IMG/VR virus record: IMGVR_UViG_2529293039_000013
Length of the DNA: 50,040 bases
Source: a virus
Lineage: Duplodnaviria > Heunggongvirae > Uroviricota > Caudoviricetes
Reading direction: 5' to 3' (one strand)
Each line of letters starts with the position of its first letter. Positions within the stretch are counted from its first letter, which is position 1. Positions 22,669-42,467 of this stretch are shown here, piece by piece. The notes beneath the pieces are model-generated. The model worked only from the letters and a program-made list of their open reading frames with translations. It ran no database searches and was not told where the DNA came from. The position numbers and the translations under genes were made by a program.

Positions 22669-23217
22669 ATGAACGTCAATAAGAAAAAACTGGCCGATAT
22701 TTTTGGCGTTGATGTCAGGACCATCACCGCCTGGCAGAGTCAGGGGTTACCACTAGTTTCTGGTGGAGGGAAAGGGACTGAATCAGTTTTTGATACAACT
22801 GCTGCCATTCAGTGGTATGCGCAGAGGGAAGCTGATATTGAAAACGAAAAACTCCGTAAAGAGAGCGAGGATTTGAGGGCTGCCAGCGAATCAGACCTTC
22901 AGCCCGGCACCATTGATTACGAACGTTACCGACTGACGAAGGCACAGGCCGATGCACAGGAGCTGAAAAATGCTCGTGAGGAAGGCCTTGTCCTCGAGAC
23001 GGAGTTATTTACCTACATCTTTCAGCGAGTGGCACAGAATATATCAGGGATCCTTGTCCGTGTCCCTCAGACACTGCAGCGTAAATACCCTGATATATCA
23101 CCCGCACATCTTGATGCTGTGAAAACTGAAATCGCGAAAGCATCCGATGTGGCTTCTGAAGCCGGTGAGAATGTGCGCAGGTGGATTGATGATTTCAGAC
23201 GAACTGAGGGCGGCTAA
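22669..23217 (+). CDS. terminase small subunit (lambda Nu1-like)
   Basis: N-terminus [28 protein letters not shown] matches lambda Nu1 from memory. Confidence 0.85.
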
Positions 23218-25116
23218 TTCTGCAGGAGCGATAGCAACCGGCCTCCTTGCGCTAAAAATTCCTGTCCCTCTGACGACAGTTCAGTGGGCAGATCGACATT
23301 ATTACCTTCCGAAAGAGTCATCTTACACCCCGGGGCGGTGGGAAACACTGCCGTTTCAGGTTGCCATCATGAACAGCATGGGGAATGACCGGATCCGCAC
23401 TGTTAATCTGATTAAATCTGCCCGTGTTGGTTATACAAAGATGTTGCTGGGAGTGGAGGCTTATTTTATTGAGCATAAATCACGCAACAGCCTTCTTTTC
23501 CAGCCCACGGATTCTGCTGCTGAAGATTTTATGAAATCTCATGTGGAACCCACGATCAGGGATGTGCCGGTTTTACTCGATCTTGCACCGTGGTTTGGGC
23601 GTAAACATCGTGATAATACCCTCACGCTGAAACGCTTTTCATCGGGCGTCGGTTTCTGGTGCCTGGGCGGCGCTGCCGCCAAAAACTACCGTGAAAAATC
23701 CGTGGACGTGGTCTGCTATGACGAACTTTCCTCGTTCGAGCCGGATGTCGAAAAAGAGGGCTCGCCAACCCTGCTGGGGGATAAGCGTATTGAGGGGTCG
23801 GTGTGGCCAAAATCCATTCGCGGCTCGACGCCTAAAATCAAAGGCACCTGCCAGATCGAAAAAGCGGCCAACGAGTCGGCGCATTTCATGCGTTTTTATG
23901 TGCCCTGCCCGCACTGTGGGGAGGCGCAGTATCTGAAATTTGGCGATGAGTCCACGCCTTTTGGGCTTAAATGGGAGAAGGACAGTCCCGAAAGCGTTTT
24001 CTACCTCTGTGAACATCATGGCTGCGTGATCCATCAGTCTGAGCTTGACCAGAACAACGGGCGGTGGATCTGTGAAAACACGGGCATGTGGACCCGTGAC
24101 GGTCTGACGTTTTTCAGCGCCCGGGGTGATGAAATTCCGCCGCCGCGCTCCATCACGTTCCATATCTGGACGGCGTACAGTCCGTTCACCACCTGGGTAC
24201 AGATTGTCTATGACTGGCTGGATGCACTGAAAGATCCCAACGGCCTGAAAACCTTTGTGAACACCACGCTGGGCGAGACCTGGGAAGAGGCCGTGGGCGA
24301 AAAACTCGATCACCAGGTACTGATGGATAAGGTGGTGCGTTACACGGCGGCGGTGCCTGCCCGGGTGGTTTATCTGACGGCGGGCATTGACTCGCAGCGA
24401 AACCGTTTTGAGATGTATGTCTGGGGATGGGCTCCGGGAGAGGAAGCTTTTCTGGTGGATAAAATCATCATTATGGGGCGTCCTGATGAGGAAGAGACGC
24501 TGTTACGTGTGGATGCGGCGATCACAAAAAATACCGCCATGCGGATGGCACCGAAATGACTATTTCCCGTGTCTGCTGGGACACCGGGGGGATCGATGGT
24601 GAAATTGTTTATCAGAGATCAAAAAAACACGGTGTTTTCCGGGTGCTGCCGGTAAAAGGCGCATCTGTCTATGGCAAGCCGGTGATCACCATGCCAAAAA
24701 CCCGCAATCAGCGGGGCGTGTATCTGTGTGAAGTGGGAACGGACACCGCAAAAGAAATTCTCTATGCCCGTATGAAAGCCGATCCCTCGCCTGCGGATGA
24801 AGCCACGTCGTATGCCATCCGTTTTCCTGATGATCCGGAGATTTTTTCGCAGACAGAGGCGCAGCAACTGGTGGCGGAAGAGCTGGTGGAGAAGTGGGAA
24901 AAAGGAAAGATGCGTCTGCTGTGGGATAACAAAAAGCGGCGTAACGAAGCGCTGGACTGCCTGGTGTATGCCTACGCGGCATTACGTGTGTCCGTGCAAC
25001 GCTGGCAGCTTGATCTGGCTGTACTGGCAAAATCCCGGGAAGAAGAGACGACCCGGCCAACCCTGAAAGAACTGGCAGCGAAGCTGTCCGGAGGAGTGAA
25101 TGGTTACAGTCGCTGA
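23189..25116 (+). pseudogene. terminase large subunit (lambda A-like), interrupted by a frameshift
   Basis: track ORFs 23147-24559 and 24556-25116 are in different frames; both match lambda gpA; junction in an A-run. Confidence 0.8.
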
Positions 25117-38991: not shown

Positions 38992-41900
38992 ATGGGCAAA
39001 GGTGGCGGCAGGGCGCACACGCCTCGAGAGGCGAAGGATAATCTCAAATCCACGCAGATGATGAGTGTGATTGATGCGATTGGTGAGGGACCGATAGAAG
39101 GCCCGGTGAAAGGCCTGCAGAGTATCCTGGTGAACAAAACCCCGCTGACGGACACGGACGGCAATCCTGTGATACACGGTGTGACCGCGGTCTGGCGCGC
39201 CGGGGAGCAGGAGCAGACACCACCGGAAGGCTTTGAGTCCTCCGGAGCTGAAACCGGACTGGGCGTGGAAGTGACGAAGGCAAAGCCGGTAACGCGCACC
39301 ATTACATCCGCGAACATTGACCGCCTGCGGGTCACCTTCGGGGTGCAGTCACTGTTGGAGACCACCTCAAAGGGCGACCGTAATCCCTCTTCTGTCCGAC
39401 TGCTGATTCAGTTGCAGCGTAACGGTAACTGGGTGACGGAAAAGGATGTCACCATTAACGGCAAGACCACCTCACAGTACCTGGCGTCGGTGATTCTGGA
39501 GAATCTGCCTGAGCGGCCCTTTAACATCCGGATGGTCCGGGAGACAGCGGACAGCACCTCGGACCAGCTGCAGAATAAGACGCTCTGGTCGTCATACACC
39601 GAAATCATCGATGTGAAACAGTGCTACCCGAACACGGCGATTGTGGGGCTGCAGGTGGATGCGGAGCAGTTTGGCGGTCAGCAGATGACGGTGAACTACC
39701 ATATCCGAGGTCGCATCATCCAGGTGCCGTCAAACTATGACCCGGAAAAACGCACGTACAGCGGCATCTGGGACGGCAGCCTGAAACCGGCATACAGCAA
39801 CAACCCGGCCTGGTGCCTGTGGGACATGCTGACTCACCCGCGCTACGGCATGGGAAAACGTCTGGGGGCGGCAGACGTGGACAAATGGGCGCTGTATGCC
39901 ATCGGGCAGTACTGCGACCAGACGGTCCCGGATGGTTTCGGGGGCACAGAGCCGCGGATGACCTTTAATGCGTACCTGTCACAACAGCGTAAGGCATGGG
40001 ATGTGCTCAGTGATTTCTGCTCGGCGATGCGCTGTATGCCGGTATGGAACGGCCAGACGCTGACGTTCGTTCAGGACCGCCCGTCGGATGTGGTGTGGCC
40101 GTACACCAACTGCGATGTGGTGGTGGATGATAACGGCGTGGGGTTTCGCTACAGCTTCAGCGCCCTGAAGGACCGCCACACGGCGGTGGAGGTGAATTAC
40201 ACCGACCCGCAGAACGGCTGGCAGACCTCCACGGAACTGGTGGAAGACCCGGAAGCCATACTGCGCTACGGGCGCAACCTGCTGAAGATGGATGCGTTCG
40301 GTTGCACCAGTCGCGGTCAGGCCCACCGTGCCGGGCTGTGGGTGATAAAGACCGGACTGCTGGAAACGCAGACGGTGGATTTCACGCTCGGGTCACAGGG
40401 GCTGCGTCACACACCCGGTGACATTATTGAAATCTGTGATAACGACTATGCCGGGACCATGACCGGCGGACGTATCCTGTCCATCGATGCCGCCAGCCGC
40501 ACCCTGACACTGGACCGTGAGGTGACCCTGCCGGAGACAGGTGCCGCCACGGTGAACCTGATTAACGGCAGCGGTAAGCCGGTGAGCGTGGCCATCACTG
40601 CACACCCCGCGCCGGACCGGATACAGGTCAGCACCCTGCCTGATGGTGTGGAGACATACGGGGTGTGGGGACTCTCCCTGCCGTCACTGCGTCGTCGCCT
40701 GTTCCGCTGTGTCTCCATCCGGGAAAACACGGACGGCACCTTTGCCATCACGGCGGTGCAGCACGTACCGGAAAAAGAAGCCATTGTGGATAACGGGGCC
40801 AGCTTTGAGCCGCAGTCAGGTTCCCTGAACAGCGTCATCCCACCGGCAGTGCAGCACCTGACGGTGGAGGTGAGCGCAGCTGACGGCCAGTATCTGGCGC
40901 AGGCGAAATGGGACACGCCGCGGGTGGTGAAGGGTGTGCGCTTCAGTCTGCGCCTGACCAGTGGTAAGGGAACGGATGCCAGACTGGTGACCACCGCCAT
41001 CACCGCAGACACGGAGCACCGTTTCAGCGGCCTGCCGCTCGGGGAATACACCCTGACGGTGCGGGCGATAAACAGTTATGGCCAGCAGGGCGAACCGGCC
41101 ACCACTACCTTCCGGATTAACGCGCCAGCAAAACCCGCCACCATTGAACTGACGCCGGGGTATTTTCAGATAACGGCGGTCCCGCGTCTTGCGGTGTATG
41201 ACCCGACGGTACAGTTTGAGTTCTGGTTTTCGGAGGCAAAAATCGCAGACACATCTCAGGTGGAAACCTCTGCCCGTTATCTGGGGACCGGCAGTCAGTG
41301 GAGTGTATCCGGCCCGCACATTAAGCCCGGGAAGGATTTCTGGTTTTACGTGCGCAGCGTCAACCTGGTGGGGAAATCTGCGTTTGTGGAAGTCAGCGGG
41401 CAGCCCAGCAATGATGGTGAAGGGTATCTGGAATTTTTCCGGGAAAAAATAGGAAAACTGCATCTGGCTCAGGGGCTATGGGAGCTGATAGACAACAGCC
41501 AGCTTGCGGATGAGATGGCGGAGATGAAGACCACCATCACCGAAACCCGCAATGAAATCACACAGACGGTCAGTAAAACGCTGGAAGACCAGAGCGCCAC
41601 CATTCAGCAGATACAGCGCGTGCAGAAGGACACAAATGATGACCTGGCTGCGCTGTACATGCTGAAGGTTCAAAAACGAAAGACGGCATTCCCTATGTGG
41701 CCGGGATTGGTGCAGGGATTGAGGATACTGATGGCCAGCCACTGAGCAACATACTGCTGCTGGCTGACCGTATCGCGATGATAAATCCGGAGAGCGGCAA
41801 CAGCACTCCGTTATTTGTGGCGCAGGGGAATCAGCTGTTCATGAACGACGTGTTCCTGAAGCGTCTGTTTGCGGCGAGTATCACGTCATCCGGCAACCCC

Positions 41901-42467
41901 CCGACGTTTTCCCTGACGCCGGAAGGGAAGCTGACAGCTAGGAACGCGGATATCAGCGGAGCAATTACCGCGAATACCGGCACGCTCAATAATGTCACCA
42001 TTAACGAGAACTGTGTCATCAGAGGGAAACTGTCTGCAAACCAGATTGAAGGCGACCTGGTGAAGACGGTGGGGAAAGCCTTTCCCCGGAATAACAGTTA
42101 TGCCAGCGGGACGGTAACCGTCACAGTTTACGATGACCAGGGCTTCGACCGGCAGATTATCATTCCCCCGGTGCTGTTTCGCGGGACGAAACACCAGAAT
42201 TTCAACAGCCCGAATCAGCAGTCGTACTGGTATTCCACCTGTAAGCTGCAGGTGCTGAAGAACGGGGTTGAGATTTTCCATGAACCGGCAACGGATGTCA
42301 GCCGGGTGTTCTCATCGGTGATAGATATGCCGGCAGGGCGGGGTCATGTCACCCTGACGTTTAATGTGTCGTCGGCCGGTGCGAACAACTGGACGCCGAC
42401 AACGTACATCAGTGATTTACTGGTTGTGGTCATGAAAAAATCCACGGCAGGGATCAGTATCAGCTGA
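38992..42467 (+). pseudogene. tail tip/host specificity protein J, interrupted by a frameshift
   Basis: track ORFs 38992-41745 and 41697-42467 in different frames; both match lambda gpJ; junction at an A-run. Confidence 0.8.

Follow-up and report, generated by a model that had tools for sequence, protein, structure and literature searches.

In enterohaemorrhagic and enteropathogenic Escherichia coli (EHEC and EPEC), the morphogenesis genes of lambdoid prophages are typically damaged by frameshifts, deletions and insertion sequence (IS) insertions; these prophages have near-identical late modules in common and can be packaged with the aid of co-resident ones (Asadulghani et al. 2009, PMC2669165). 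Here, we analyzed a prophage sequence of this type, a stretch of 50,040 nucleotides (hereafter, the window; IMG/VR record IMGVR_UViG_2529293039_000013), which exact-protein look-ups identified as positions 53674-103713 of AIFC01000020.1, a 121,877-bp draft contig of the enteropathogenic E. coli strain DEC2D. A preliminary description, made from the sequence alone, had reported six frame breaks in the large structural genes of the window and had read them as the marks of a defective prophage that keeps its regulatory and cargo genes. Comparison with sister assemblies favors a different reading, to which we assign a probability of about 0.72: one of the six breaks, in the tape-measure gene H, is real, and the other five are artefacts in a chimeric contig.

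As in phage lambda, the genes from Nu1 to stf follow the standard order throughout, with matching sizes and Pfam families, and the slippery heptamer at the G-T junction is conserved. Departures from lambda are the presence of sodC between I and J, of an IS21-family element between lom and stf and of type III effector genes after the tail fibre genes, together with the frameshift in H. In its lambda-type late operon and in its cargo (sodC, lom, espW, nleG and espM2, with the effectors downstream of the tail fibre genes), the locus resembles the prophages Sp3-Sp15 of EHEC O157:H7 Sakai and the exchangeable effector locus prophages. The types of lesion, namely frameshifts and IS insertions, and the near identity of the morphogenesis modules among co-resident prophages are likewise those of the Sakai prophages (PMC2669165). 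In contrast to the latter, the verified damage amounts to only two lesions, a frameshift in H and an IS21 element inserted between lom and stf, whereas the heavy damage that sets the window apart is private to one draft.

Frame breaks in the late operon

To locate the breaks, three intact E. coli prophages with about 97.6% identity to the window (L001-L003; aligned copies are cited by such labels throughout) were aligned by MAFFT with window positions 21689-43967. Inside the coding sequence of the region 23189-42467, there are six single-base insertions or deletions (indels), and no more, in five genes:

23189-25116, plus strand: A/terL, terminase large subunit; one A lost after 24523 (GATCAAC to GATCAC), next to GATC
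25303-26896, plus strand: B, portal; extra T at 26388 (GGTCTT to GGTTCTT)
26886-28393, plus strand: C, head protease/scaffold, an S49 peptidase; two +1 insertions
33211-35789, plus strand: H, tape measure; one A lost after 34262 (A5 to A4)
38992-42467, plus strand: J, tail tip/host specificity; one A lost after 41671 (A6 to A5)

The first insertion in C is an extra G at 27257 (CTGGAC to CTGGGAC), and the second is an extra A at 27353 (TGTGCA to TGTAGCA), which makes a TAG stop codon. The open reading frames (ORFs) that remain are 23189-24559, which ends early, and 24556-25116 for A; 25303-26421 and a second one up to 26896 for B; 26886-27266, 27193-27354 and 27380-28393 for C; 33211-34413 and a second one up to 35789 for H; and 38992-41745 and 41697-42467 for J. 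No break was found in Nu1, W, D, E, FI, FII, Z, U, V, G, T, M, L, K, I, lom or stf, and a tblastn search with 27 proteins of the relative strain CD45 found no split frames among the early and lysis genes. Thus, the alignment with intact relatives confirms the six breaks, and the earlier statement that the other recognisable genes are unbroken holds for the remaining late genes as well as for the early and lysis genes. That all breaks fall in large structural genes is also true, but this restriction is only weakly non-random and mostly a target-size effect: the five affected genes account for 57% of the late region, and six random hits would all land inside them with P = 0.036.

When the same prophage was compared across sister strains, the H break proved to be common, whereas the five others occurred in DEC2D only. 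The A4 allele of H is present in AIFD01000025, JANHLX010000078, UFZD01000005, AIEZ01000021, ADUL01000060 and NJJB01000085, that is, in seven assemblies including the window, and the 400-amino acid (aa) H fragment is identical in the six others. UFZD01000005 is a contig of 5.12 Mb and presumably a long-read assembly. Among the aligned copies, L005 and L006 have the same allele, and L031, L033, L034 and L036 show no difference from the window at 34262. The exact 61-mer around the break is also found in six complete genomes, and in the one that was inspected, the tape-measure gene is labelled 'frameshifted' by the Prokaryotic Genome Annotation Pipeline (PGAP). The H break is a true inherited mutation that is carried across the lineage. 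Because it is common to the sister assemblies, the prophage that owns the structural genes is genuinely tail-defective. The IS21-family insertion between lom and stf is similarly reproducible: it is also present in L031, L033 and L034, and wherever an assembly reaches that point (four assemblies), whereas in L001-L003, stf follows lom directly without an IS21 element. Complementation of the H-defective prophage in trans by co-resident prophages is possible, by analogy with the prophages described above.

A separate observation concerns NZ_CP018250.1 (1270273-1275333), which has the H A4 allele and in which the adjoining L gene is annotated as frameshifted, too; this combination reflects either shared decay or homopolymer errors of that assembly.

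Five breaks confined to one draft and a repeat shared by two prophages

None of the breaks in A, B, C (twice) and J recurs in a sister assembly that covers the site, even though substitutions relative to the window number only about 1.5 per 10 kb in these assemblies. Across window positions 22500-33219, UFZD01000005 (L020) differs by four substitutions and by exactly four indels, at 24523, 26388, 27257 and 27353; across positions 27559-48139, L031 differs by six substitutions and the J indel. In the sisters, A is intact with 642 aa (L020, L021, L024, L025 and L027-L029), the portal has 530 aa in all cases, C has 501 aa (L020, L021, L023, L027-L029, L031 and L033), and J has 1158 aa (L031, L033, L034 and L036). 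The 372-aa N-terminal portal fragment, the 917-aa N-terminal J fragment and the Lom variant of the window are known from AIFC01000020.1 alone. The same picture was obtained for complete genomes: of 1,699 matching complete-genome records, none contains the exact 61-mer at the A site, the B-site allele has no full-length exact match among 1,858 such records, and the C-site alleles are matched exactly by 0 of 1,875. Altogether, not one of 5,426 complete E. coli genomes has the A, B or C alleles of the window. Given that none of the five lesions is reproduced in any sister assembly and that those in A, B and C do not recur in the complete genomes searched, the five private breaks cannot serve as evidence for progressive decay of the late genes into six pseudogenes.

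The mutation spectrum is also unusual. Over about 50 kb with sister comparators, the changes private to DEC2D comprise 8 substitutions and 5 indels of 1 bp. The substitutions amount to roughly 1.6 per 10 kb, with no difference between the late genes and unique chromosomal DNA, and all four in coding sequence are synonymous and look like ordinary polymorphism, whereas the private indels are all disruptive. The ratio of indels to substitutions is about 0.1 in E. coli mutation-accumulation data. At this ratio, five or more indels among 13 events have a probability of 0.004, and the late region would receive five or more with a probability of about 2e-5 (0.003 at a ratio of 0.3). Furthermore, a segment of 2,830 bp contains four of the five private indels (scan P = 0.003), and one private substitution lies close by. 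Because this indel-rich spectrum does not match the local substitution divergence, natural divergence is the weaker explanation. In addition, with the lysis genes intact, there is no obvious selective benefit in the inactivation of A, B, C or J in a tail-less prophage.

An alignment of the A-C region across 20 copies places the indels in a wider context. No private indels were found in this alignment in the Logan short-read assemblies, in either of the two UFZD01 prophages or in the three intact complete genomes. Private 1-bp indels occur in three drafts of the DEC series, namely the four of the window and, in the two other drafts, those at 23859, and at 23997 and 24300, likewise in the repeated A gene; L011, L012 and L014 contain many private indels. 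A high error rate across the DEC drafts in general is ruled out by 15.2 kb of unique DNA of the same contig, in which DEC2D, two other DEC drafts and UFZD01 show no indel differences. Equally, no indel differences were found between UFZD01 and DEC2D in 13 kb of DEC2D contig 15.

The cluster of private indels coincides with a repeat:

22500-26258, plus strand: exact 3.7-kb repeat of two co-resident prophages, comprising Nu1, A, W and the 5' part of B

Within this interval, two prophages of GCA_900448265.1 (L020 and L021) are identical to each other. L021 differs from the window from position 26258 on, and L020 differs within the repeat only at 22690 and by the indels. Contig 15 of DEC2D (L025) equals window positions 22501-25743 except for the A site and ends inside the portal gene, and three further contigs (L024, L026 and L033) also break within the repeat. 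Four of the private indels (A, B and C twice) lie in the repeat or just beyond it. This is the pattern of draft-assembly artefacts at prophage modules: the private single-base indels are confined to multi-copy late genes, and the sister contigs break in the repeat while one contig crosses it and thereby gains incompatible chromosomal flanks.

The discordance of these flanks is directly observed. To the left, the contig carries plsB-lexA-dinF-zur and, to the right, potB-potA-pepT, both in the plus orientation of the window (L050:14573-20533 and L030:17803-20648). In UFZD01, the zur flank and the early genes are located at 3.82-3.85 Mb; the arm with Q, the lysis genes, Nu1 and A is located at 4.19-4.21 Mb, where it is joined to another, intact tail module (FI of 124 aa, H of 853 aa); and the structural and cargo module of the window is located at 0.56-0.60 Mb, behind a left arm of the contig-15 type. 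The draft AIFA01000071 also links the zur flank and the left arm of the window to the other tail module. Because the prophages at the zur and potB loci are in direct orientation, a real crossover that connects zur, the left arm, the tail module and potB would entail the loss or duplication of well over a megabase. By comparison, it is much more probable that the contig was mis-joined across the repeat, and the region 22500-26258 is the probable crossover zone of the chimeric join.

Several matches that seemed to indicate shared breaks were rejected. A 337-aa C fragment found in nine contigs suggested that the C breaks are shared; however, L008 and L009 start 4-9 bp upstream of the ATG, and since the fragment reflects this contig-edge effect, it is uninformative on either insertion in C. 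A 186-aa C-terminal A fragment found in 16 contigs was dismissed as evidence for a shared A break because the lesions there differ: these contigs belong to other prophages, with A5 or A7 in the neighboring A-run or with an extra base, and the AA-to-A deletion of the window is not among them. The A-run in question, at 24526-24531 just downstream of the A break, has six residues in the window. The variants were drawn from L013, L015, L017, L011 and L012: A5 characterizes another prophage lineage, which includes two Logan short-read assemblies and one complete genome, and A7 occurs in two indel-rich assemblies and yields the same 186-aa C-terminal fragment as A5. The idea that this run is a recurrent or phase-variable hot spot was dropped, with A5 present in 1 of 1,709 complete-genome records.

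Competing explanations

In the reading that we prefer, the ancestral A5-to-A4 deletion in H and the IS21 insertion between lom and stf have been inherited by the whole lineage. The prophage that owns the structural genes is thus unable to build its own tail and persists as a carrier of sodC, lom, espW, nleG and espM2. The assembler would have joined the left half of the prophage at the zur/dusA locus to the right half of the prophage at the potB locus across the 3.7-kb repeat, and the breaks in A, B, C (twice) and J would be consensus or assembly errors of this draft, in late genes of which more than one co-resident prophage has a copy. The five breaks have the hallmarks expected of artefacts: they are found in one assembly only, in repeated DNA, with an indel-rich spectrum against the background of the local substitutions, and in a contig with discordant flanks. 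Judging from the sequences, the five private indels are most likely errors rather than very recent mutations, and the contig join is probably a mis-assembly.

Accordingly, the interpretation given in the preliminary description has to be revised in part. A defective prophage is supported by the H frameshift in seven assemblies and by the IS21 insertion in four, but the five other breaks do not add evidence for late-gene decay. It is doubtful that a single prophage has kept both regulatory and cargo genes, given that the two halves belong to two prophages, megabases apart, in the sister genomes and that the flanks are discordant. Homopolymer sequencing error had been offered as the alternative; an artefact indeed fits five of the sites, but the homopolymer mechanism fits poorly, with runs of four or more bases present only at the H and J sites, of which H is the real break. 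In this respect, the breaks also differ from classic draft artefacts: several indels lie away from long homopolymers, and they are known here from the consensus sequence.

Several points weigh against the combination of one real break and five artefacts. In unique DNA, the DEC drafts are of very good quality, so that a local cause of the errors has to be assumed. At three of the private indels, the run comprises no more than one or two bases, and one indel is an insertion outside any homopolymer. From 26258 to 27444, the consensus follows the alleles of one prophage, with no visible mixing of paralogous reads; with the alleles of one copy at 14 of 14 distinguishing positions, mixing of reads from two prophage copies was rejected as the direct cause of the B and C breaks. 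The A5 allele of J occurs in 2 of 612 matching complete-genome records, and gpJ is labelled 'frameshifted' there by PGAP. It is biologically plausible that further frameshifts are neutral in a prophage that is already tail-defective. Finally, the contig could reflect a real rearrangement, which is unlikely.

Some of these points are shared by the alternative that all six breaks are real, in which a prophage disabled in H would have decayed further in DEC2D, for example during long storage, while selection maintained the cargo. With the H lesion being ancestral, selection on the other late genes would be relaxed, and the outcome would not be unusual, frameshifted and IS-bearing defective lambdoid prophages being the rule in EHEC and EPEC (PMC2669165). 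In J, the A6 run is a natural slippage site, with A5 in two complete genomes. The branch of private substitutions of DEC2D is also slightly longer than those of its sisters. On the other side, five indels against eight substitutions are far off the expected ratio (P about 0.004; 2e-5 in the late region), and four of them lie inside 2.8 kb with a single private substitution nearby. No sister has any of the five, no complete genome has the A, B or C alleles, and the cluster coincides with the repeat where the contig flanks are mutually inconsistent. Taken together, these observations make such continued decay unlikely.

A more far-reaching variant takes both the zur-to-potB junction and the five private frameshifts as real, such that DEC2D would carry an inter-prophage recombinant with a localized burst of frameshifts (four in 2.8 kb) beside the crossover. 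We regard this as quite improbable. If true, the recombinant would imply a rearrangement or duplication on the megabase scale, and the burst would point to error-prone repair synthesis during inter-prophage recombination.

That all six breaks, including the one in H, are sequencing errors in a fully intact prophage is very improbable. In favor of it, the H site consists of a run of A5, homopolymer errors could be present in the six complete genomes with A4, and one of these has the frameshifted L next door; however, the identical H allele recurs across seven assemblies that differ in project and year, among them the 5.12-Mb contig and recent drafts. Functional recoding of some of the breaks, by programmed ribosomal frameshifting or slippage that restores the full-length protein, can practically be dismissed: one programmed frameshift is indeed used in lambda-like late operons (G-T, with the heptamer at 32766-32772), and the A-run beside the A break varies between prophages (A5, A6 or A7), but each of the five genes is a single ORF in relatives, the breaks are private or limited to one clone and are not conserved in homologues, three of them are +1 insertions without a slippery motif, one of which makes a TAG stop, A5 in the A-run is limited to the 1 of 1,709 complete-genome records, and among all these sites only the G-T heptamer fits a programmed frameshift.

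With one real break and five artefacts, counting frame breaks in a single draft has overstated the decay of the prophage six-fold and has fused two prophages into one. Scores of prophage intactness, pseudogene load or effector-phage mobility that are derived from draft EPEC and EHEC genomes would be similarly misleading. The remaining biology is well documented, that is, an effector- and sodC-carrying lambdoid prophage with one tape-measure frameshift and the lom-stf IS21 insertion, stably inherited in the clone. The verified part of the locus is therefore best treated as an ordinary lambdoid prophage of a known kind, and the rest as a data-quality problem.

Gene content and minor observations

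The late operon is complete and of the lambda type and extends over window positions 22.7-46.8 kb, in the order Nu1, A, W, B, C, D, E, FI, FII, Z, U, V, G, T, H, M, L, K, I, sodC (on the opposite strand), J, lom, IS21-family element and stf; espW, nleG and espM2, which are type III effector genes, come after stf. From Nu1 to J, the collinear genes encode the matching protein families: along L004, L007 and L032, the Pfam families include Phage_Nu1, GpA_ATPase/nuclease, gpW, Phage_portal_2, Peptidase_S49, HDPD and Phage_cap_E, followed by TMP_2, Phage_tail_L, Lambda_tail_I and the GpJ domains, and the PGAP gene names in L001-L003 agree with the assignment. In the best complete E. coli relatives, which are about 97.6% identical over 23271-42467, each late gene is a single intact coding sequence. 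The further features of the late region and the cargo are:

32766-32772, plus strand: GGGAAAG slippery heptamer at the end of G, with the G and T ORFs in the standard arrangement
38331-38858, minus strand: sodC, Cu/Zn superoxide dismutase cargo gene, intact, between I and J (annotated in L001-L003; Pfam Sod_Cu, 175 aa, in L004)
43269-45070, plus strand: IS21-family element between lom and stf, with istA at 43269-44291 and istB at 44291-45070 (Pfam rve/HTH and IstB_IS21 in L030 and L032)
45183-46496: stf, intact, cut off from the late operon by the IS21-family element
47480-50040: type III effector cargo, all genes unbroken
47480-48538, minus strand: espW
48617-49267, minus strand: nleG-family gene
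49450-50040, plus strand: espM2

The heptamer, which we take to be the site of the programmed -1 frameshift known from lambda G-T, is separate from the six breaks.

Upstream of the late operon, three phage tRNA genes lie between Q and nanS-p (15439-15688), one with a CAU anticodon (Met according to ARAGORN, Ile in the annotation of a relative), one for Arg-TCG and one for Arg-TCT. The Rha gene and the replication module (about 8218-10980) are mosaic in comparison with the sister strains, with many substitutions, and the module of DEC2D holds a different pair of genes (331 and 99 aa). The PerC-family gene of relatives is cut to its first 28 codons in the window (10884-10967). The DUF968 gene (13181-14167) is intact in DEC2D and encodes 329 aa, whereas in the sisters L021, L023, L024 and L026, a Tn5-like transposase (457 aa) is inserted into it at the point that matches window position 13261. 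A G-run at 16250-16256 is G6 in the window, in AIFA01000071 and in strain CD45, and G5 in UFZD01, AFJB01 and AIEV01, which alters the C-terminus of a small hypothetical ORF (69 vs. 76 aa). Apparently, this is a natural, seventh frame difference outside of the large structural genes.

At the zur-side end of this prophage family (window positions 1-420 and upstream), a 139-aa ORF lies beside a SocA/Panacea-domain gene; about 18,000 indexed blocks of the collection contain exactly this protein, and the two genes may constitute a toxin-antitoxin or defence pair. At the other end of the window, the effector genes have a counterpart in the O111-like complete genome NZ_CP027347.1 (4465421-4480038), in which espW-nleG-espM2 are located at the dusA end of a prophage, adjoining a frameshifted integrase gene. 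Therefore, the cargo module has moved between prophages at different loci.

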